Positions 15,670-28,567 of a stretch of 64,000 nt of DNA are shown in pieces. Made by a program: the position numbers and the translations under genes. The notes beneath the pieces were generated by a model, which was not told the DNA's origin, made no database searches, and saw nothing but the letters and a program-made list of their open reading frames with translations. Source of the DNA: Escherichia coli. Its GTDB lineage: Bacteria > Pseudomonadota > Gammaproteobacteria > Enterobacterales > Enterobacteriaceae. The DNA is taken from the NCBI GenBank assembly GCA_025336685.1, contig GCA_025336685.1_4717.1; one strand, written 5' to 3'. Numbering within the stretch: the stretch's first letter is position 1; each line of letters begins with the position of its first letter.

Positions 15670-16925
15670 AAGTCGGCATTGTATCCCTTAAGGATCATCA
15701 CGCTTAACCCGATGGTGTTATCCTGCGGATCGCGTTTAACCTTGGTGATTTCAAGACATTGGTTACTGCTTCGGTCAAGTGATGGGTTTCGAACAAAACC
15801 ACACACAATCCCATCGAACGGTGTATCGGCAATAAGCTCATCGTGTAGCTCGCTCATCATCGGGTGGTAATTACGGACATGTTCCGCAACGAACGCACGT
15901 GCTGCTCTTGGTGAATAACCACGATGGAATAACTTGGATTGGATGTGTTCTTTATTGGTTAATGTAAATGGCGCGTATGGGAAATGCAGATGATAATAAC
16001 GATGGTTCGCTGTTATCGAACTGATTACGGTACGCGTGGTGAATGGGTGTAATGTACCTAATATGTTTTTACGCGTGATACCTTTCTTCTTACCGATGAA
16101 CTCATCGAAAATCGCCGAGTGGTACTGCAGCAGCTTCAGTTGTACTTTCGCCATCCAGTTTTCTTTCTTTCTGGCGCTCAAAGGTGTTGTTGGGTGATAG
16201 ATACTATTCAATGTGCCGATAGCATCGATCGCACCTTCCATTTTGCTATCTGCATAACGGCCGGTCGGTGTATTTTCGATAACGAACATCATGGCCGCAG
16301 GAAAGCTGATATACTGGCTGAAGAACTTATCACGATGGATACGGATGAATTCTCGTAGCGTGTCAACTTTCTCTGTGTTCTTCGGTCCACGTAACGTAGG
16401 TCCTTTATACAAGATCTCCATGATGCGATCGAAGTTCTGTATAAAGCTATTTACGCCACGTCGTATCCCGAATACATCGAATTGCTGCTCCAGATAGTTC
16501 TTGAGTTCGATGGGTCGTTTTACATTTGGACGGTAACTGGCATCAATGAGCCACGTCATCGTTTCGAAGCTTTTGATATTCAACTCGCTTGCCAGCACGA
16601 GATGGACCAACGGGTTAATGAACGCATCGATTCCTTCAGGGACACGCGCCCAGACCGTCGAACGAATCTCCTGTTCTGCTGGGTAGGTCACAACCGTTTT
16701 ACAGTTTGGACACACCGTGCCGAGCAGCTCACCACGATTGTAAAAACCGCATCCACATTGCGGTGTGATATCCAACGTATCGCTGGAGTAAACACGGGTG
16801 ATAAAACTGTTTAATTTCTTCTTCTCTTCGACGACTTTTGTATCGTAATCGTTCAACAAAATCGGCGTAAAGGGAAGTTCTGCGAGCTGTCTATCGAAAC
16901 TCACGATATCGAGCATGATGGCCAT
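15670..16925 (-). CDS. RNA polymerase beta-prime-like subunit, exon 1 (zinc-finger N-terminus through NADF)
   Basis: CGCGFYNRGELLGTVCPNCKTVV matches the beta-prime zinc-binding motif (E. coli [23 protein letters not shown]); GKKKGITRKNILGTLHPFTTRTVIS matches [24 protein letters not shown]; the listed ORF ends ...KGYNADF followed by SFFN-stop, which is the start of the intron. Confidence 0.8.
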
Positions 16926-20328: not shown

Positions 20329-22482
20329 TTATTCTGCGGTTTCTTGCTTCGGTAAATAACTTGCTGCGATGTCTTGGGCCAACAATGTATTGTTTTTATT
20401 CGAGATGAAAATACCGTAACTTTCCATTAACGCATAATACGAACGAACGAGCGTAGAGATCAGTCGACGAATATCCATACCTTGAATAAAGATATCAGGA
20501 AGCCCGGAGGCTTCGATCACCGGTAATGGTATCGTTAAGTTGCTTATCGTTTTCTTATCGTTACGTACAATCCAATCACGGAAACGTTGTTGTAACCCTT
20601 TATCCTCCCATGAATCAATCCAATCATTAAGAAGCGTTTTGTTCTTCGTCGCCAGCGGTACACGAACCCCAACATAAGGCGGTTCAGAGCAATGGCCGTA
20701 CGATTGAGCAAACACCTCTTCCCACATATCGTAAGACTGTTTCGTTACTGCAACATGTGGTTTCACTTTAACACGTGTTAAGAAATCGGGGTCACCTCGT
20801 TTCATTGACTCAACGATTTCGTTTTCTAACGAGATGATATCATCAAGAACCAATCGAATACTGATCTTCTCGTTACGTAACAGCTTATCCATGATACCAC
20901 ACATCATCCGCTCAACACGTTGGACGATCATCTTCGGCGCTGATGCGTCGCGCATAACAGGGCCTTTCAATTCCAGCTTCGGTGGATTGATAGGAACCCC
21001 TTCACGCATGGTCATGTATCCGTAATAGTTTTTACCCATCGAGGTTAACGACAGGATTAAGAACATATATTCGTTCTTCATCTCCATTACGTACATATGC
21101 TCTTTCGCTACACCGATATTACCAGAACACATCGCCATCAGATGAACCGTAATCTGCGTAACCAGATAGATAAGCGTGTTTGCTAAGCGCGTCGAAATTG
21201 GATTGATCTCCATATTTCCAAATCGCCACTGAACCCACTCCTGGCAGGTAAACACCGTCGAGTCGGTATCAGACAACACACCCACTTCACGGATTGCCGA
21301 CGGAAAAGCATAAACGCCTGCCGGTTGGTTCTCGGTACGCCATAACGCCTTAATTAAATCAGCGTAGCTTTGGATGCGTTGCAGCATTAATTTTGTCGTT
21401 GCTGCAGTAAGACGATAACCGAGTTCATTTCCTTTTTCTAGCGCTACGTAAATCGCTTCCCCGTTCAAGAACTCCGTGCATTGTGCTGTAATCCAAGCTA
21501 CCGTGTTGTTATCCATGGAAGCAATAATGGCTTTAGCCTCTTCCATCGTTTCAACAGGTTCGGATGCCAGTTCACATAACGAGTCAAGAAAATCTCGAAC
21601 AAATTCAGGATTAAGCTCACGTAACGAGTACAGGTTATTGCTGTACATGTAGCAGGCACGTTCCAACGGCGTTAAACCGGTAATTAGCTCCCGGATGGTC
21701 AGCTCTTTCTCTGGGTCGAAAGTATACCGATGTAAGCATTTCGATACGTTAGCCCAAACCTCTTCCGGCGTAGGGTAATGCAGTTTGTATTTTACCATTA
21801 CCTGCTCAATGGCTTTACGATCGCTGTTACGGACAATACTCACGATGTTTTCAATTGCGATATCACAATCGTAATAATGGAAATTACCCGCAAGGAAGCG
21901 TTCGTTGTTCGCATTGGCTGAACCTGAAGCACAGCGACATGTTGTCGTTAGACTCGGATGCGCGATCGGATTGTAAAATGGGTTAAACTTGGACGCTTGG
22001 GTTCCTGACAAGCTGTTGTTATCTAACTTGGTGTTGGTTTGTCGTTTATCGTGTAACTCAGCTTCGTCTTTACGTCCGTGAGCTTGCGCTATCGACATTT
22101 GTTTCTTCTGTTTCTTACGCAACTTACCGTTTTCAACCGCAAAGTCGCTTAGCACACTGGAACGTGTTTCACGTGGATAACAGTTAGCCCATACCGGCGT
22201 GATAATTAAATTATTTTCTTTAATATCGTTGAAGTATTGGCTGAACTTGATGACTTCTTTTTCTCGGTTTCCTTCAGTACGCTGTGTTAGTACAAGGCAG
22301 TCGGGATCAACCATCCCGTATTTTCCACCAGGACTAACCGTATCAAGAACAAACTGCAACGCTTCCTGCTGAGAAATCCCACGCATGCGCATTAAGAACA
22401 GGGTATAATCCTGTACCGCTTCTTTGGTCATATCCAACGTACGGCCATATCCGTTTTCATCGTAAAAGAACGGATTTTCCAT
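20329..22482 (-). CDS. hypothetical protein (717 aa); weak polymerase-like motifs
   Basis: Long ORF containing GVLSDTDS and YDMWEEVFAQSYG, which loosely resemble nucleotidyltransferase / RNAP beta region I motifs; not sufficient for assignment. Confidence 0.5.
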   Translation of the reverse strand: MENPFFYDENGYGRTLDMTKEAVQDYTLFLMRMRGISQQEALQFVLDTVSPGGKYGMVDPDCLVLTQRTEGNREKEVIKFSQYFNDIKENNLIITPVWANCYPRETRSSVLSDFAVENGKLRKKQKKQMSIAQAHGRKDEAELHDKRQTNTKLDNNSLSGTQASKFNPFYNPIAHPSLTTTCRCASGSANANNERFLAGNFHYYDCDIAIENIVSIVRNSDRKAIEQVMVKYKLHYPTPEEVWANVSKCLHRYTFDPEKELTIRELITGLTPLERACYMYSNNLYSLRELNPEFVRDFLDSLCELASEPVETMEEAKAIIASMDNNTVAWITAQCTEFLNGEAIYVALEKGNELGYRLTAATTKLMLQRIQSYADLIKALWRTENQPAGVYAFPSAIREVGVLSDTDSTVFTCQEWVQWRFGNMEINPISTRLANTLIYLVTQITVHLMAMCSGNIGVAKEHMYVMEMKNEYMFLILSLTSMGKNYYGYMTMREGVPINPPKLELKGPVMRDASAPKMIVQRVERMMCGIMDKLLRNEKISIRLVLDDIISLENEIVESMKRGDPDFLTRVKVKPHVAVTKQSYDMWEEVFAQSYGHCSEPPYVGVRVPLATKNKTLLNDWIDSWEDKGLQQRFRDWIVRNDKKTISNLTIPLPVIEASGLPDIFIQGMDIRRLISTLVRSYYALMESYGIFISNKNNTLLAQDIAASYLPKQETAE

Positions 22483-22557
22483 AAATCCTCCAAAAGTTAT
22501 TTAGTCTGTCTACATCATCTCGTATATCTGTTAAAAAAGAAGGACGGCATAAAAAGA

Positions 22558-22583
22558 ACCGATCCAGCCGAAGCCAGATCGGT
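22558..22583 (-). terminator. hairpin ACCGATC-N12-GATCGGT followed on the minus strand by a T-tract
   Basis: Minus strand reads ACCGATCTGGCTTCGGCTGGATCGGTTCTTTTTATG, a rho-independent-terminator-like structure in the 300-bp intergenic region. Confidence 0.4.
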
Positions 22584-22638
22584 TTAAAGGATAATAACTG
22601 ACTGAAAGATATCGATGATGTTCGTGAAACAAGATCTT

Positions 22639-22687
22639 CTCTCGTGTTACAATGATGCCAGATCAGAGGGAGGTTGTAACACGAGAG
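22639..22687. other. long stem-loop (14-bp perfect stem, 21-nt loop) in intergenic region
   Basis: CTCTCGTGTTACAA...TTGTAACACGAGAG inverted repeat read directly; sits between the promoter-proximal end of the 20329-22482 gene and the 22781-23194 stop. Confidence 0.45.
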
Positions 22688-22780
22688 ATGGTTCGCCAAA
22701 GAAGGAATAAAAAACACGAACCTATCTTATTTCACTGATGGCACTAACCACTCAAAATATATAGTACCGTATGTAAAAGT

Positions 22781-23194
22781 TTACTGATTAATCAAGTCGT
22801 TAGCAACAATCTTGGTGTAACCCGCCTGATTAAGAATTTGATTAATTTTTGTCATGTCGGTCGCATCCTCGATAACGATGCTAGGTTTATAGATCAGCGT
22901 CTTGGTAACGACGATCGTGCTCTCCTTAATCCAAGGAATCCCTAAAATCACATACTCACCATCAGCTGTGATGACCTCGACGTAATTGTACTTCGTCGGA
23001 TCGTTCGGTACACTCGACGGGAGCCGGGAATAAATCTGTTGGTGAATGGCGTCCACATCGCGGCCGTTACGTACGGCGGTACGATAATTGTACACCGCGC
23101 TAATTTCTACTCCGTTGAAGTTAACCCCAAGTTCTGGGGCGTACACATCAAAACTCACAACAGAGCCAATCTTTTCTAAATCAGAAGCTGGCAT
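22781..23194 (-). CDS. hypothetical protein (137 aa)
   Basis: ORF; no motif recognised. Confidence 0.45.
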   Translation of the reverse strand: MPASDLEKIGSVVSFDVYAPELGVNFNGVEISAVYNYRTAVRNGRDVDAIHQQIYSRLPSSVPNDPTKYNYVEVITADGEYVILGIPWIKESTIVVTKTLIYKPSIVIEDATDMTKINQILNQAGYTKIVANDLINQ

Positions 23195-23205
23195 AATAGC
23201 ATCCT

Positions 23206-23727
23206 TTATTTAAAAATGTATTCATATCCGAAAGTCGTCGCCGACCAGACCCGGATAGATGATAGTGTTCCACCACGATAAAACGTTTTTGTGAACTCCA
23301 TATCCTGGACAACACGATAATAAACACGTCCGATAATACGTACGATAAGATATCGTGATAACGATCTCTCCTCGCAGTACTCATCGATAAAGTCATCGTC
23401 GATATCCGATAAGACAACATCTGCGATTTCTTGCAGTAGATTCCTCATCAGCATCTGCCTTCCTTCGGTACCCCACCCAGACAAACAGTAATCGTCTTCC
23501 GCCTGACTATAGATGTCGTTAACCGCCTGTTCGAGCAGTTGCTCAAGATAGTAGTCATCGCGCTTTATAACGTGGCGACGGCGCTCAGTGGCGTATTTTT
23601 CCATCCTGTGTTTCTCTTGTTCGGCGTATGTATTAACGACGCCACAGTCTTTTCTGGATCGTCCCACAATGCGCGACGAAAACTGGATACTACCATAACG
23701 GTAGGATAGATTTGTACGACCTCCCAC
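23206..23727 (-). CDS. hypothetical protein (173 aa or less)
   Basis: ORF in a run of frame-shifted overlapping ORFs; the true start is probably internal. Confidence 0.35.
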   Translation of the reverse strand: MGGRTNLSYRYGSIQFSSRIVGRSRKDCGVVNTYAEQEKHRMEKYATERRRHVIKRDDYYLEQLLEQAVNDIYSQAEDDYCLSGWGTEGRQMLMRNLLQEIADVVLSDIDDDFIDEYCEERSLSRYLIVRIIGRVYYRVVQDMEFTKTFYRGGTLSSIRVWSATTFGYEYIFK

Positions 23728-24053
23728 CCGTAACGATGCGTGTTAGTCGTACGACCGACATTGAACAGACATAACTGATTTAAGAAACAGAGCTGCATCT
23801 TCGTAAACAACACCATGTCTTCACGTTTAACGTATCCGAGGATATATGCATTCTCGAACGCCTCGCGTGACAAGACAGGACGATTAAGATACCGCAACGC
23901 TAATACCAGCAACGTTGTTATACGCAACGGATCTTCCGGGTCATTCATGGTGTTCAGCTCTGCTTGTAACCAGTCGGGGATAGTAACCGTCAGACGATAG
24001 GTATCTGTTCCACGATCAACCACATTCAACGTTGAAAAAGGCAACATATCCAT
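23565..24053 (-). CDS. hypothetical protein (162 aa or less)
   Basis: ORF overlapping its neighbours in a different frame; start uncertain. Confidence 0.35.
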   Translation of the reverse strand: MDMLPFSTLNVVDRGTDTYRLTVTIPDWLQAELNTMNDPEDPLRITTLLVLALRYLNRPVLSREAFENAYILGYVKREDMVLFTKMQLCFLNQLCLFNVGRTTNTHRYGWEVVQIYPTVMVVSSFRRALWDDPEKTVASLIHTPNKRNTGWKNTPLSAVATL

Positions 24054-24591
24054 GAATTCCTTCTAGCTCGAGGTTGTTCTCGACGGTCTTCGGTAATAAC
24101 CCACTGGCCGTTAACATCTGTGTCATCGAGTAATCAAAGCACGGAAATATAAGGTTAACGGTTTCCTGGATCGCGTCAACATAACTATAAATGGCTTCAT
24201 AATACTCACCGTCATGATCTACGCTAACCAGTTCCTGACACAGTTCTTCGCTTATCATTTCATATACCGGTGGATACCACGATTGAAATGGTCGCTGCAT
24301 ACGTAACGACCAGTACTCGTACGTCGTATACTGAAGCACGTCATAAGCCGATACGTTAATGCGGTCGAAGAAAGCATACTTGTCCATATGCTGATACAAC
24401 ATCGCCAGTACGGTTTCCAAGCACACCGATATCCGCACGCCATCATCTTTCCCGTTAAGAAAATTAGGTTTCTGCCGATAACGCACAAATGCCGACGGCT
24501 TTGATTGTATTATTCCACCACCAACCATAACGTCATACTCGTATCTAACGTAAAATTGAAATGCCACCAATCTTCTACACGTGGAATCCAT
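24016..24591 (-). CDS. hypothetical protein (191 aa or less)
   Basis: ORF; start uncertain. Confidence 0.35.
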   Translation of the reverse strand: MDSTCRRLVAFQFYVRYEYDVMVGGGIIQSKPSAFVRYRQKPNFLNGKDDGVRISVCLETVLAMLYQHMDKYAFFDRINVSAYDVLQYTTYEYWSLRMQRPFQSWYPPVYEMISEELCQELVSVDHDGEYYEAIYSYVDAIQETVNLIFPCFDYSMTQMLTASGLLPKTVENNLELEGIHGYVAFFNVECG

Positions 24592-25193
24592 GTACGAAGG
24601 ATTTGGTTAACTTCGCTTCGCATCACCGATAAACGACAACGAAAGTCGAACTTCTCATCGTGGCCGTAGTCTTCATGCATGAAAACTTCATCCAAAACGA
24701 ACTCAAGTTGCGTGTCTACATCACGACCGGAGATATTTCGTTTGTACAGATACAGTTCAATCGTGTCGTAAAGCAACGTATGAATATCATAATTTCCGTT
24801 CGGCGAGAAATAAGGTAATCGCTCATCGAGCATCGAAAACAGATACTCACTGTAGTTTAATAACGGGATGATGTACCGACGTCCGGTCTGTGGTGTGCGA
24901 ATATGTATCGAAACCTGACTTGGACGCGGAATAGCCGACGGCTTAGAATCGTCTCTCTGAAATTGCTCTAAAGATCGCAACAAAGGTGGCCGCATTGTAA
25001 CTCTCCAACGCCCAATTGTAAGGCCCTTCCAACATGTGTTCCCATACGTGAATAAACTCACTACCGAAGACAGGCTCGAGCGCCATGGTGAGATTCGTAA
25101 GTTCTGACGCTGCCGCATGGTAAGCATCAACATGTCTTTCCATCGACGGATCGTCTTCATTGAAAATACGTTCTGTGTCGCCAGCCCTCTCAA
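24510..25193 (-). CDS. hypothetical protein (about 160 aa if started at an internal Met)
   Basis: The first 60-80 codons overlap the upstream ORF and have atypical composition; a downstream start is likely. Confidence 0.3.
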   Translation of the reverse strand: MRGLATQNVFSMKTIRRWKDMLMLTMRQRQNLRISPWRSSLSSVVSLFTYGNTCWKGLTIGRWRVTMRPPLLRSLEQFQRDDSKPSAIPRPSQVSIHIRTPQTGRRYIIPLLNYSEYLFSMLDERLPYFSPNGNYDIHTLLYDTIELYLYKRNISGRDVDTQLEFVLDEVFMHEDYGHDEKFDFRCRLSVMRSEVNQILRTWIPRVEDWWHFNFTLDTSMTLWLVVE

Positions 25194-25572
25194 TAAGTTC
25201 GGTAATGAGATCTGTCCATGTTTCGTGGCACGTCATCATTTCCTGTTCTCGACTTAGTATTCCGATGTCTGCGTGGACGCTGGACTCGAACCGGTCTAAA
25301 AGGACCCGAAGAACATGCACCTTGTCGATGTATTTCACCGTTATCCAAGAAAGCGGTCGCCATCGACTCAGCGTCCATCCGGTACTCGGGAACCCCAAAC
25401 TCATATAGTACGGGTTGCACGGGACCGAAGACGGAGCGACGTTGTTTAAATCGTTCCTTAATGGCAATGCCCTGTTTAATGTAAATGGGTTCATTGGCGA
25501 GTTGTTTCGCTTTTCGTTTCGCGTGAGCCAATCGAAGTTCTTCCAATTGCCCAAGCCATTCAAATTGTTCAT
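24943..25572 (-). CDS. hypothetical protein (about 100-200 aa)
   Basis: Overlaps 25190-26167 by about 380 nt; the real start is probably the internal Met near 25250. Confidence 0.3.
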   Translation of the reverse strand: MNNLNGLGNWKNFDWLTRNEKRNNSPMNPFTLNRALPLRNDLNNVAPSSVPCNPYYMSLGFPSTGWTLSRWRPLSWITVKYIDKVHVLRVLLDRFESSVHADIGILSREQEMMTCHETWTDLITELIERAGDTERIFNEDDPSMERHVDAYHAAASELTNLTMALEPVFGSEFIHVWEHMLEGPYNWALESYNAATFVAIFRAISERRF

Positions 25573-26167
25573 CTGTTAGCTCCTGGGGACGTTCAACAAT
25601 CGCGCCAGATGGGCAGACATTGATCGTGATGTTAATTGATGGCATCGCCATCACTTGAGGGTTACTATTACGTACGCGGACAACATGTTCGGTTGCTGAC
25701 TTACGATCAACGCAATACTCTGTTTCTTGGAACTCAAATGCTTTTAACGGTGTTGGTTTTGTTTGATGTTTCTTAACACGACCAAGATCAACGATATAGA
25801 CATAGTCGCACACACGCTCTATTCCGTAAATACGGTTATCCGACCAGTTCTTACCAAACAGCTTGTTGTGATGATAAGACAAATATTCGGTTACCATACC
25901 CTGAACAACATCGAAGTCTTCTCGAAAGTCAGGTTGATACCAAATCGGGCCGAGAATATCTGCGAACGATTCGTGACGATATCGAGGATCATGTCGAGTC
26001 CAGGGCATTCTCTGATTAAGATCGAAATCCACCAACAATTCCGTTAATTGCAGTTTTTCCTTCGGAGAAAGCTGGCGTTGATGATGCAAACTCAAGCAAT
26101 CGATAAGTGGTAATGAAACCCACGATGCTAATGTGTACAAATCGATCCTGGCTAGTCTCTTGGTCAT
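25190..26167 (-). CDS. hypothetical protein (325 aa as listed)
   Basis: Long ORF; the C-terminal third overlaps the next ORF. Confidence 0.4.
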   Translation of the reverse strand: MTKRLARIDLYTLASWVSLPLIDCLSLHHQRQLSPKEKLQLTELLVDFDLNQRMPWTRHDPRYRHESFADILGPIWYQPDFREDFDVVQGMVTEYLSYHHNKLFGKNWSDNRIYGIERVCDYVYIVDLGRVKKHQTKPTPLKAFEFQETEYCVDRKSATEHVVRVRNSNPQVMAMPSINITINVCPSGAIVERPQELTDEQFEWLGQLEELRLAHAKRKAKQLANEPIYIKQGIAIKERFKQRRSVFGPVQPVLYEFGVPEYRMDAESMATAFLDNGEIHRQGACSSGPFRPVRVQRPRRHRNTKSRTGNDDVPRNMDRSHYRTY

Positions 26168-26258
26168 ACTCTTTTCCTAAGTCCCCATTGTTTATACACA
26201 CGATATCTGGGAATAGTTAAAATATACGGCGTAAAACGAAATAGGAGAGTTTCTGGCA

Positions 26259-26558
26259 TCATTTTCTCCCTCTTCGAATACCACCGATACCTCTTCGATC
26301 CAAGACGTCCCAAGCACGCTTTATTTCTTCCTCCCGTTCCTGATTCCAATCGTTAAATCGTTTTCTTATTTTATCCCACCACTCTCCCATGCTTTCTCCT
26401 ACACGGCATAAAAGCCTGCCCCGAAGGACAGGCTCGATAGAACTTAATAACCATCCAATTTCAATGAAGGATGGTTGACGATATGTGCGTGTTTTGCTGG
26501 GTCGTATGGTTGATATGGAAAATAACCATGCCACTGACGACCTTGGCATTTCGTACAT
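26259..26558 (-). CDS. hypothetical small protein (99 aa)
   Basis: ORF; overlaps 26444-26644, so only one of the two may be real. Confidence 0.25.
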   Translation of the reverse strand: MYEMPRSSVAWLFSISTIRPSKTRTYRQPSFIEIGWLLSSIEPVLRGRLLCRVGESMGEWWDKIRKRFNDWNQEREEEIKRAWDVLDRRGIGGIRRGRK

Positions 26559-26644
26559 ACGAACTGACCATCGCTTCGCTGATTCTCGTAAGCGAGTTCA
26601 GTACTATCAACATGACCGCAACGTTCGCAGATAAACAGCGACAT
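26444..26644 (-). CDS. small zinc-ribbon-like protein (66 aa)
   Basis: Two Cys pairs, CERCGH...CTKCQG (C-x2-C ... C-x2-C). Confidence 0.4.
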   Translation of the reverse strand: MSLFICERCGHVDSTELAYENQRSDGQFVCTKCQGRQWHGYFPYQPYDPAKHAHIVNHPSLKLDGY

Positions 26645-26826
26645 AGCGCATCTCCATTCACTTGAACTTTTTGGTTCGGTGTTAGAAAAGCAAGAAACCG
26701 CTGTTCTTCGCTTCCGCTACAGTTTCGTCACCAACTTTCGGTGCCTGTTGACGCGCGTTACGATGTTCGATGTAACGTTTCGCTTCGTCAGCGATTTGTT
26801 TGATAATACCCTAAACGATCCAGTAC

Positions 26827-27660
26827 TTAAAACAAACGACGTCGCTTCTGAATCAGGCTGCTTTCAGGTACAAAACCGTCACAGCTGTAAATAGCGTTAA
26901 CACCCATGACTTTAGTCGCGTCTTTCGGATAAAGCGTACAGAAAGCAATAGGACTATCGTTCTCTTTCGTCCAATCGTATCCCACGAACGTATTCAGTTC
27001 GGTGATCGTTGGTTCCAAACCGGTAACACGTGGATGGTTTAAGAAGTTTTCCAGGTCGGCGCTGTCAAGACGACGGTTCTCACCAGAAAACAGAACACAA
27101 AGCTGGCTAATAACAACCTGCACGTCCAGGTTGACATCCTGCTCCGATTTCCCATTTTCGCCATTCATGTGATAGCTAACAATCACCGGACGTTTCAATC
27201 CTTCTGCAGCTGCCATCAGTCCTTTAAAGGTACGATCGGCGTTGATCGTTTGACGCTCATCATCGAACGAGGCAACGATGCAACACACCACACGTTCACC
27301 GCGTTCCAGCAGGTTAGCAACCAACGCAGGACCTGCAACAGAACCTGAACCACCGCTCAGACTAAAGACCACGATATTAAATTTACCAGGCGTATGCTTA
27401 TTGAGAATGCCTGGGATTTGTGAACAGATCAGTTCAGCGTTCTCATCACGCTTCTTACCAGAACCGTCTAACTCACGACCCGCCGCATCTTTAAAGATGT
27501 AGATATGATCGTCGTCCAGTGCGCTATCGCGTAGGTTAGCCCGGCTGGTATCAACATACGTCATGCTGTGTAATCCTTTCGCGACTTCGCCTTCAAACGC
27601 TGAGCCGATTTCGCCACCACAACCACCAACAGCCCAAATATGTACTTGGTTCTCTTGCAT
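26827..27660 (-). CDS. phuZ: PhuZ-like phage tubulin/FtsZ-family GTPase
   Basis: N-terminal glycine loop IWAVGGCGGEIG and tubulin signature FSLSGGSGSVAGPALV (cf. PhuZ SLGGGSGSV / tubulin GGGTGSG); size and spacing fit the tubulin fold. Confidence 0.8.
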   Translation of the reverse strand: MQENQVHIWAVGGCGGEIGSAFEGEVAKGLHSMTYVDTSRANLRDSALDDDHIYIFKDAAGRELDGSGKKRDENAELICSQIPGILNKHTPGKFNIVVFSLSGGSGSVAGPALVANLLERGERVVCCIVASFDDERQTINADRTFKGLMAAAEGLKRPVIVSYHMNGENGKSEQDVNLDVQVVISQLCVLFSGENRRLDSADLENFLNHPRVTGLEPTITELNTFVGYDWTKENDSPIAFCTLYPKDATKVMGVNAIYSCDGFVPESSLIQKRRRLF

Positions 27661-27724
27661 GTGAACTCCTAATTTAATATGTATTTAACGTACAATGAAT
27701 CTTTCTTTGCTAAAGGGGTGACCC

Positions 27725-28567
27725 ATGGGTGCTATTGACCACAGTGTAGATCGTATCTGTCGTACAATACCGGCAGATATCCTACAGTATTGCTATATCG
27801 ATCGTTACGACTGGCGTAATCGCTATCCTCGTTCCGTAGAAGACATCATTACCGATTGGGTAATCCGTAAACGGGTTATCGGTGACATCGATATCTACGG
27901 GGGACTACAAACCGTTATTCCCCTCGATGATGCTGGCGTCACAGTCGAAGAAGTCACCATTAATTGTTATGTTTTCCACATCCCGTTGGAAGCCACGCAG
28001 GGACGTTATATCACGTCCGCATTATCCATTATCTCAGGGAGCGTGAACAACTACGGAATAAACTATAACGGGCAATGGGGTGCTTTCAACCAAACCCAGT
28101 TTCAACGTCAGCTTTGTGGGTGGAACCCCGCAAGCAACACGTTACAGCAAGGGATGAATGCTTTCGGTCCCATGAACGTTCTTAGTACGGCCAACGTTGA
28201 TATCATCGCCCCTAACACCATCATGGTGAACAACGTCACGCCGGTACAATTTCCCCTGAGTCTACGTTGTTTTCTTGCCCACGATCCGGAACTCACCAAC
28301 CTCAGCATGGAAGTTTGGAACGACTTCTACAAACTCTGTTTATACGCCACGCAAAGTGACATCTACAACAGAACCGTTATCCGTCTCGATAGAGGTGTTA
28401 CAGCACAAGGACAAGAAGTCGGTGCATTCAAGGAATACATCGATCGCTTTGCTGATGCTGAAAACACATATCAGGAATTCCTGAACGAAACGTGGGCTGG
28501 CGTTGCTGCCTGGAACGATCCACAAACTAAACGTCGCGCCATTCGACTACAAACCGGCTACTTCTGA
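27725..28567 (+). CDS. hypothetical protein (280 aa)
   Basis: Plus-strand ORF followed by a hairpin and T-rich tract. Confidence 0.5.
   Translation: MGAIDHSVDRICRTIPADILQYCYIDRYDWRNRYPRSVEDIITDWVIRKRVIGDIDIYGGLQTVIPLDDAGVTVEEVTINCYVFHIPLEATQGRYITSALSIISGSVNNYGINYNGQWGAFNQTQFQRQLCGWNPASNTLQQGMNAFGPMNVLSTANVDIIAPNTIMVNNVTPVQFPLSLRCFLAHDPELTNLSMEVWNDFYKLCLYATQSDIYNRTVIRLDRGVTAQGQEVGAFKEYIDRFADAENTYQEFLNETWAGVAAWNDPQTKRRAIRLQTGYF

Follow-up and report, generated by a model that had tools for sequence, protein, structure and literature searches.

The genes considered here lie in a stretch of 64,000 nucleotides (nt) from an Escherichia coli assembly (GenBank GCA_025336685.1, contig GCA_025336685.1_4717.1), referred to below as the window, in which seven consecutive open reading frames (ORFs) crowd the minus strand between positions 22781 and 26167. 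Judged by comparison with related genomes, all seven are genuine genes under strong purifying selection. One of them, gene A, encodes a protein of the virion baseplate, and the other six, genes B to G, would most likely serve the phage nucleus as factors specific to their clade, a tentative assignment in which cargo adaptors of the PicA import machinery are the leading candidate. This reading is favored because the block occupies a slot that is shared by the chimalliviruses examined and that, in phage phiKZ, holds the import factors Imp2 and Imp4.

From its sequence, the region can be assigned to a Goslar-like, nucleus-forming E. coli jumbo phage (chimallivirus). Positions 22400-26338 match Escherichia phage vB_EcoM_Goslar, a nucleus-forming jumbo phage with a genome of 237 kb, at 96% DNA identity, and identity over the window is about 95-96%. 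Between 22781 and 26167 the alignment with Goslar contains no insertion or deletion (indel), and the same seven genes stand in the same order and map one-to-one. They correspond to Goslar_00192-00198 in GenBank MK327938 and, in reverse numbering, to HOV27_gp243-gp237 in RefSeq NC_048170. All seven are thus already annotated in Goslar, six of them as hypothetical proteins. The genes are lettered G-F-E-D-C-B-A in their 5' to 3' order on the minus strand, A being ORF1 (22781-23194) and G being ORF7. It is important to stress that the two Goslar numberings collide, since "gp193" and "gp196" name different genes depending on the numbering that a given paper uses. The "gp193" (a RecA homologue) and "gp196" (a virion RNA polymerase subunit) of the literature were rejected as genes of the block, because in RefSeq these numbers denote genes at 228-231 kb. 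The RefSeq reading of "gp193" is confirmed by RNA sequencing (RNA-seq), because HOV27_gp193 is strongly reduced by knock-down of ChmA and HOV27_gp242 is not.

The proposed role of B to G is read from their position: they fill the slot between the gene for the tubulin PhuZ and the genes for the SH3DP protein and the DNA polymerase. In every chimallivirus examined, this slot contains one protein of 280-500 amino acids (aa) and five to seven small ones, and it is collinear in phiKZ, PhiPA3, 201phi2-1, Psa21, Simmy50 and Proteus phage 10. The likeness extends to detail in the phiKZ region gp43-gp49, where PhuZ, a protein of 300-360 aa, some five proteins of 90-180 aa, SH3DP (gp49) and the DNA polymerase (gp50) follow one another in the same orientation, with protein sizes of 357/119/152/144/178/127 aa, compared with 325/131/161/170/160/132 aa here. 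In phiKZ, orf47 encodes Imp2, a cargo-specific import factor on which entry of the RecA-like Nlp1 into the nucleus depends and which itself enters through Imp1/PicA, and orf48 encodes Imp4, a cargo-specific import factor needed for import of the host protein TopA; according to Kokontis et al. (bioRxiv 10.1101/2024.03.27.586873), conservation of both is limited to phiKZ-like phages of Pseudomonas. By position, gene C, the second-to-last small gene before SH3DP, is the counterpart of Imp2 (gp47), and gene B, the last small gene before SH3DP, that of Imp4 (gp48), with 132 aa compared with 127 aa. In the proposed mechanism, B to G would act as cargo adaptors of the PicA import machinery. That the block may work like Imp2 and Imp4 is thus an analogy drawn from synteny, expression class and evolutionary pattern. 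The two situations differ in their hosts, Pseudomonas for phiKZ and E. coli here, and in that function has been shown for the phiKZ proteins only.

Homology of B to G to the slot genes of Simmy50, Proteus phage 10, phiKZ, PhiPA3, 201phi2-1 and Psa21 was rejected, since only SH3DP produced matches. A profile of C built from five lineages found no match in the gp47 family (phiKZ, PhiPA3 gp44, 201phi2-1 and Psa21) by blastp or hhalign, the best probability being 1.2%. Likewise, B reached an hhalign probability of 1.2% and a non-significant pairwise E value of 0.043 against phiKZ gp48, and an hhalign probability of 1.0% against the position-equivalent family (201phi2-1 gp80, PhiPA3 045 and Psa21 044). 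By sequence homology, C would therefore not count as a member of the Imp2 family, nor B of the Imp4 family. Between Simmy50 and Proteus phage 10 the slot proteins are orthologous, at just 23-31% identity.

The second line of evidence concerns expression. In the published Goslar RNA-seq, which compares ChmA knock-down with control at 30 min, transcripts of gp237-243 are not lowered by the knock-down (log2 fold change, log2FC, +0.03 to +0.6). In the same data ChmA itself shows values of +0.7 to +1.1, PicA of +0.8 to +1.2 and PhuZ of +0.35 to +0.54, compared with about -1.1 for the DNA polymerase gene and -3 to -7 for late genes, which are down 8-fold to 100-fold. The block thereby falls, as do ChmA, PicA and PhuZ, into the early class of transcripts that does not depend on ChmA. 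Two virion proteins, gp243 (22781-23194) and gp233 (27725-28567), are found in this class too, unlike almost all other structural genes.

The block is bounded on the minus strand by two intrinsic terminators. The one at 26410..26433, which follows a gp200-like zinc-ribbon gene, has the form GCCTGTCC-TTCG-GGGCAGGC followed by TTTTAT and corresponds to a terminator annotated in Goslar (-18.8 kcal/mol). The other, at 22557..22584, is a strong terminator between gene A and the DNA polymerase gene, with a 12-bp stem followed by CTTTTTAT, and Goslar likewise carries an annotated terminator at the equivalent place. The genes gp199'-G-F-E-D-C-B-A form one polycistronic minus-strand unit between these two terminators. 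The first small ORF of the unit, gp199' (26259..26390, minus strand, with a GGAG-ATG start context), is the homologue of Goslar_00199; it encodes 43 aa, compared with 106 aa in Goslar, owing to an in-frame deletion of 189 bp at window position 26333, and the gap pattern at this place in L005 is not the same as that of the window. As for promoters, a repeated motif upstream of G was considered and rejected, because it occurs only once in the window, and a scan of σ70-type promoters found sites no more numerous than expected by chance.

The third line of evidence is evolutionary, and rests on what the six proteins are and where their relatives occur. Gene G (25190..26167, minus strand; Goslar_00198/gp237) encodes 325 aa with an isoelectric point of 9.2, and combines a conserved N-terminal region, an LTDEQFEW motif and a basic C-terminal tail (RPVRVQRPRRHRNTKSR...) that overlies the 5' part of F in a second reading frame. 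Its remote relatives P0007 (E = 6e-37) and P0008 (E = 2e-19) share 27-31% identity with it. Within G, few synonymous changes occur at 25511-25600, which encodes PQELTDEQFEWLGQLEELRL, the best-kept motif of the distant G homologues. Gene F (24943..25338, minus strand; Goslar_00197/gp238) encodes 131 aa, or 153 if read from ATG 25404, compared with 98 aa in the Goslar annotation, and gene E (24510..24995, minus strand; Goslar_00196/gp239) encodes 161 aa, the best conserved of the small proteins. Gene D (24016..24528, minus strand; Goslar_00195/gp240) encodes an acidic, tyrosine-rich protein of 170 aa, whose orthologues in the distant lineages L017 and L018 share about 25% identity and align from residue 1. 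Finally, gene C (23565..24047, minus strand; Goslar_00194/gp241) encodes 160 aa and has an orthologue in L018 at 22% identity (E = 2e-7), and gene B (23206..23604, minus strand; Goslar_00193/gp242) encodes an acidic protein of 132 aa.

None of these six proteins has a significant match in Pfam, PHROG, NCBIfam, PADLOC or the PDB sequences, and none matches a described anti-defence or defence family in Pfam, PHROGs, NCBIfam or PADLOC, none of which is a dedicated anti-defence library. A tblastn search of 50,697 phage genomes returned Goslar only. In exhaustive HMMER and word-indexed searches, relatives of B to G were found only in Goslar-like uncultured phages, namely L017, L018 and L028-L030, the last of which include a 259-kb NCBI assembly; further distant lineages were sought in IMG/VR and metagenome contigs, which returned only Goslar-clade genomes. 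In the distant lineages the gene set and order are fixed, without gain or loss, at protein identities of 27-31% for G, 32-33% for F, 36-44% for E, 25% for D, 22% for C and 25% for B, compared with 55-63% for SH3DP. Within the Goslar clade, the ratio of non-synonymous to synonymous substitution rates (dN/dS) is 0.016-0.13 over the seven genes (for instance, A 0.016, C 0.058, B 0.071 and G 0.13). B to G are therefore functional proteins, fast to diverge between clades and tightly constrained within one. They are soluble and contain no hydrophobic or transmembrane segment. They are also absent from the PDB chains of the Goslar virion and do not figure in the part of the virion mass-spectrometry table that was covered, which is weak evidence. 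Paralogy among the six was considered and rejected, as all-against-all blastp and hhalign found nothing.

Structure prediction gave very different results for two of the proteins. The AlphaFold model of G, built from four close sequences, has a predicted local distance difference test score (pLDDT) of 33. The model of E, built from eleven sequences, has a pLDDT of 80 and a predicted template modelling score of 0.77, and describes one strand, four helices and a C-terminal hairpin, a confidently predicted alpha/beta fold without a solved analogue. Against predicted viral structures, this model gives weak matches (E of 4e-4 to 0.1), nearly all of them to uncharacterized proteins from jumbo phages, chimalliviruses among them. 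Two of the proteins matched are a 325-aa Goslar protein, the same length as G, and PhiPA3 gp039, the orthologue of phiKZ gp43, so that the E model weakly resembles the orthologue of a phiKZ slot protein.

Gene A (22781..23194, minus strand; Goslar gp243) stands apart from the other six. Its product of 137 aa matches the Pfam family PF20287 (SH3DP) over residues 8-127 with E = 1.3e-36 and 125.3 bits, compared with a cut-off of 25. Over residues 1-137 it is 99% identical to the Goslar virion chain PDB 11lx_V/36za (E = 2.1e-86), and it also matches PDB 9xqs_M, the phiKZ protein PHIKZ049 (gp49), with E = 2.1e-14. In a 2026 preprint on Goslar cryo-electron microscopy, gp243 belongs to the inner baseplate, where it forms part of the lower wedge, and among the entries listed in the Goslar mass-spectrometry table it is given as inner baseplate with 24 copies. 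Gene A is thus a lower-wedge (inner baseplate) virion protein that is conserved across chimalliviruses, with homologues in 173 phage records, and in all related loci the SH3DP gene adjoins the divergent DNA polymerase gene (PF20286). The statement of an earlier note on this DNA that none of the seven ORFs has a recognizable motif accordingly holds for B to G and fails for ORF1. That note had also named homology to routine structural proteins as a finding that would speak against its functional proposal, and this is what was found for ORF1, a routine baseplate protein. As a separate observation, the 57 nt at 23145-23201, comprising the start and first 16 codons of gene A, are invariant in the first six genomes compared, a length for which chance expects some 0.02 such stretches.

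The limits of the genes were examined in eleven genomes of 86-98% nucleotide identity, consisting of the window and ten relatives: Goslar, IMG/VR and metagenome genomes at 93-98%, and the lineage of L011, L012 and L023 at 86-89%. Over the 3.4 kb at 22781-26167, these genomes show about 680 variable sites yet not a single indel, and variation at third codon positions maps the reading frames cleanly, in agreement with the gene models proposed here. When the ORFs are recomputed as maximal ORFs, that is, from the first ATG, GTG or TTG after a stop, the seven minus-strand ORFs exist with exactly the limits previously given (22781-23194, 23206-23727, 23565-24053, 24016-24591, 24510-25193, 24943-25572 and 25190-26167). 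Several of these maximal forms are nevertheless too long. The extension of B (23605-23727) was rejected as coding because of stop codons in L011, and that of E (24996-25193) because of stops at 25078/25083 in Goslar and L011 and within 24996-25061 in L022. The extension of D was rejected because codon 24591 is CTG in L011; moreover, upstream of 24573 changes in the D frame are non-synonymous only.

The supported starts, all on the minus strand, are ATG 26167 for G, GTG 25338 for F, ATG 24995 for E, ATG 24528 for D, ATG 24047 for C, ATG 23604 for B and ATG 23194 for A. The start of E is preceded by GGAG 8 nt upstream. The start of D is kept in 11/11 genomes and agrees with the automatic gene call of 170 aa in L011-L013, whereas the start annotated in Goslar, 24510, is ATA in the window and GTA, GTG or ACA in others. 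For C, ATG 24047 is kept and ATG 24053 is ACG in L011, L012 and L023; for B, ATG 23604 is kept across the genomes compared. The case of F is less simple: the ATG annotated in Goslar (25239) is ACG or ACA in 5/11 genomes and ATG 25236 is CTG in 3, whereas codon 25338 reads GTG throughout the Goslar clade, L029 likewise having GTG and L018 having ATG, and a motif W-x-T-[VM]-[KS]-Y in the F frame is common to all lineages. The comparison thus points to GTG 25338 as the start of F, or possibly ATG 25404. Another ATG in the F frame, at 25572, has AGGAG upstream of it, and that frame is unconstrained further downstream. A start of E at GTG 25061 (183 aa, with an F overlap of 119 nt) had been suggested by the invariant zone 24948-25062, which begins at that codon; it was ruled out by a stop of L022 within the extension and by the N-termini of all orthologues, which align to ATG 24995. 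Two Goslar annotations are thereby corrected, F (gp197/gp238) having 131 rather than 98 aa and D (gp195/gp240) 170 rather than 164 aa.

With these starts, the real overlaps amount to 149 nt for G/F (215 nt if F starts at ATG 25404), 53 nt for F/E, 19 nt for E/D, 32 nt for D/C and 40 nt for C/B, and B and A do not overlap at all, being separated by a gap of 11 nt. The overlaps of 80-380 nt listed earlier are therefore real as five out-of-frame junctions, and inflated in size: the maximal limits would imply 383, 251, 82, 38 and 163 nt, which is partly an artefact because each ORF had been extended to its longest form. Elsewhere in about 95 kb of the Goslar annotation, the largest same-strand overlap is 23 nt. 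The overlaps are considered dual-coding because the upstream gene loses nearly all its synonymous variation within them. In G, third positions are variable at 5/76 sites inside the G/F overlap versus 99/249 outside it (p = 7e-9); in F, at 0/17 inside the annotated F/E overlap versus 30/43 outside (p = 6e-7); in D, at 0/10 inside the D/C overlap versus 64/154 outside (p = 0.007); and in C, at 1/13 inside the C/B overlap versus 60/137 outside (p = 0.015), the 40 nt of the last containing just one or two variable sites. In the E/D overlap, which is too short for this test, 0/6 third positions of E are variable (p = 0.09). The overlapping frames are open in all 11 genomes, apart from L026, where G stops three codons early. 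This is one of two single-genome stops, the one in L026 lying at about 25199 in window terms and the other, in L022, at 25030-25032 in the extension of the E frame. Since the downstream starts sit inside the preceding gene, internal initiation or re-initiation coupled to the upstream gene must follow, which bears out the expectation of internal start codons or coupled translation at the five overlapping junctions.

Its distribution among lineages shows the longest overlap to be a new G tail overprinted on an existing gene. The L017 homologue of G is only 280 aa long and stops short of the tail, and the codon there that is equivalent to 25338 is GTC, which is no start; in L018, L029 and the Goslar clade, G continues as a basic tail (RPVRxQR...) over the 5' part of F. 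The G/F overlap accordingly measures about 14 nt at most in L017, 89 nt in L018, 113 nt in L029 and 149 nt in the Goslar clade.

Suppression of synonymous variation is not confined to the overlaps, as it also marks two zones directly upstream of internal starts. The first, of 82 nt (25339-25420), lies in G ahead of the start of F and has a sharp boundary at 25421: third positions of G are variable at 2/27 sites there versus 99/249 elsewhere in G (p = 5.5e-4), and variation remains low from 25420 down to 25190. The second, of 66 nt (24996-25062), lies in F ahead of the start of E and is also sharply bounded, with 1/22 third positions of F variable among 6 genomes (p = 2.5e-7) and 4/22 among 11. 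The first zone may reflect either coding by F from ATG 25404 or a constraint linked to translation initiation. The second requires no extension of the E frame, as the frame of GTG 25061 has a stop in L022. A stable RNA element was ruled out as the cause of both zones, with fold z scores of +1.57 (24996-25062, where the RNA has less structure than the controls) and -0.02 (25339-25420) relative to shuffled controls, and the zones have no match in Rfam. For both, the simplest explanation left would be a constraint acting on the internal start of translation.

Programmed ribosomal frameshifting would be another way to account for the G/F junction, joining the two proteins into a fusion in the manner of the G/GT pairs of tail chaperones. 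It would explain why the F frame is open and conserved over about 70 codons inside G and why synonymous variation is suppressed from 25420 onwards. However, the shift required is +1 (or -2) and not the usual -1, G reads on for some 50-75 codons past any shift site with its tail motif RPVRxQR kept in distant lineages, codon 25338 is GTG in some lineages and ATG in others, as expected of a start, the two genes barely overlap in L017, and no stable RNA structure lies downstream. The features of G/GT pairs (a -1 slippery site, an early end of the zero frame and no second start) are not those seen here, and a fusion was rejected as scarcely credible.

Several functions other than service to the phage nucleus have to be weighed for B to G. 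The earlier note had proposed that arrays of this kind in jumbo phages often encode host-takeover or anti-defence factors. On this reading, B to G would be early proteins directed against E. coli proteins or its immune systems, either while the phage nucleus forms or ahead of it. Their early, shell-independent transcript class would suit such a role, as would their small, soluble and mostly acidic products, their absence from virions among the table entries listed, a predicted E fold without known counterpart, and a restriction to one clade with divergence far faster than that of the flanking core genes (22-44% compared with 55-63% identity for SH3DP). Anti-defence islands usually show gene flux, however, whereas here gene number and order are fixed, presence/absence variation is lacking and 3.4 kb of eleven genomes contain no indel. 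Moreover, dN/dS values of 0.02-0.13 give no arms-race signal at that depth, there is no match in Pfam or PHROG, ORF1 is a routine structural baseplate protein, and an equivalent slot occurs in all chimalliviruses examined, whatever the host, holding import factors and not anti-defence genes in phiKZ. Host takeover or anti-defence is thus rather unlikely, and a role in the phage nucleus is considered more likely. A different proposal makes the block a set of accessory replisome proteins (for instance for processivity, loading or single-strand binding) serving the adjacent divergent DNA polymerase. The block indeed adjoins this polymerase gene in every genome examined, is expressed early, ends with a gene whose Pfam domain is named "SH3 fold domain associated with phage DNA polymerases", and includes a strongly basic G tail that could bind nucleic acid. 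Yet a terminator separates it from the polymerase gene, which responds differently to ChmA knock-down (log2FC -1.1 versus about +0.3 for the block), and the neighborhood has already misled once, since SH3DP proved to be a baseplate component. As E resembles no solved replication protein and replication factors are usually better conserved than B to G, this proposal is improbable. Even more so is the idea that B to G are morphogenesis factors that stay out of the virion, for instance chaperones or scaffolds of baseplate or tail assembly, co-expressed with A. They do lie between the same two terminators as the gene for the lower-wedge protein gp243, have the portal adaptor gp233 as opposite-strand neighbor, and would, like assembly chaperones in general, be missing from virions, in line with the mass-spectrometry entries listed. 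Almost all other structural genes, on the other hand, belong to the late class, down 8-fold to 100-fold on ChmA knock-down, which the block does not; the phiKZ slot members of known function are import factors; and no similarity to tail or baseplate chaperones was found in Pfam or PHROG.

The assignment of B to G to the phage nucleus has its own difficulties. An import role has been shown for just two of the approximately six slot genes of phiKZ, and another adaptor, Imp5, is encoded elsewhere in that phage (orf287). The best hhalign probability of B to G against the six slots compared is 3%, and the structural link consists of a single model, that of E, the only one modelled confidently, with Foldseek template modelling scores of 0.4-0.57. 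No localization or knock-down data can be assigned with certainty to genes of the block; the nuclear "gp193" of Birkholz 2022, for instance, could not be assigned and may or may not be gene B. Finally, the operon also includes the baseplate gene A, a poor fit to a purely nucleus-related theme. All these points weigh against the assignment and keep it tentative.

A broader proposal, quite unlikely when taken as a whole, is that the slot between PhuZ and SH3DP would be a family-wide, fast-evolving locus for nucleus specificity factors. B to G would then be the equivalents of phiKZ gp43-48, diverged beyond recognition by sequence, with an E-like fold in common and their stoichiometry set by the chain of overlaps and the conserved upstream initiation zones. 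If this were true, cargo-specific import adaptors would exist in all chimalliviruses, could be found by synteny and could be studied in E. coli, which is genetically tractable. The question served is how nucleus-forming phages select the proteins that enter their protein-walled nucleus, given a conserved core importer PicA/Imp1. If, instead, the block consists of ordinary accessory genes, the finding would be routine.

As to the surroundings, the DNA polymerase gene (divergent, PF20286; 20329-22482, minus strand) lies downstream of ORF1, and this flank also contains chmA, the gene for the nuclear shell protein, and a gene on the opposite strand. In L018, a gene with SUKH/SMI1-KNR4 domains, an immunity-protein-like family, lies as an insertion (16353-16760, minus strand) with the DNA polymerase gene on one side and the opposite-strand gene on the other; the other lineages are without it. 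The other flank comprises two tiny genes, the PhuZ gene and the portal adaptor gene (Goslar gp233, opposite strand). One of the tiny genes, the gp200-like zinc-ribbon gene (homologue of Goslar_00200; 26444-26644, minus strand), stands directly after PhuZ and encodes 66 aa with two CxxC pairs that look like a zinc ribbon; its distant counterparts in L017 and L018 retain 44-49% identity. It is upstream of the block that the window differs from Goslar, by the 189 bp missing from gp199 and by a disrupted frame in the PhuZ gene. The latter (26682-27662, minus strand) carries indels near 26848, 26822 and 26810 (-1, +1 and -2) relative to Goslar, L005 and L011, and a premature TAA at 26827-26829 leaves an ORF of 277 aa rather than 326 aa, so that the protein would lack about 50 residues at its C-terminus. 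The gene may be truly defective, or the assembly may be in error here.

The overlaps allow a last comparison with known systems. Like the block described here, the phiKZ slot has unusually long same-strand overlaps, and in both cases the protein set is clade-restricted. Annotated overlaps in the slot measure 128 nt (gp44.1/45) and 59 nt (gp45/46) in phiKZ (L016, 9964-10937), 47 nt (041/042) in PhiPA3 (L031, 6032-6725) and 59 nt (gp77/78) in 201phi2-1 (L032, 6266-6727), and long overlaps may be a general property of the slot. Overprinted overlapping genes are well known in other phages, for instance in phiX174 and in the Rz/Rz1 pair of lambda. As in those cases, selection acts on two frames of one DNA stretch and leaves little synonymous variation in the overlap; the younger frame here is the tail of G, which is basic and of low complexity. 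Unlike those cases, the overlaps belong to a genome of 237 kb with no evident pressure for compression, they follow one another at five consecutive junctions, and suppression reaches 66-82 nt upstream of two internal starts, which dual coding does not explain. The block is an example of a dual-coding overlap that is both long and old, in a genome that has no need for compaction.

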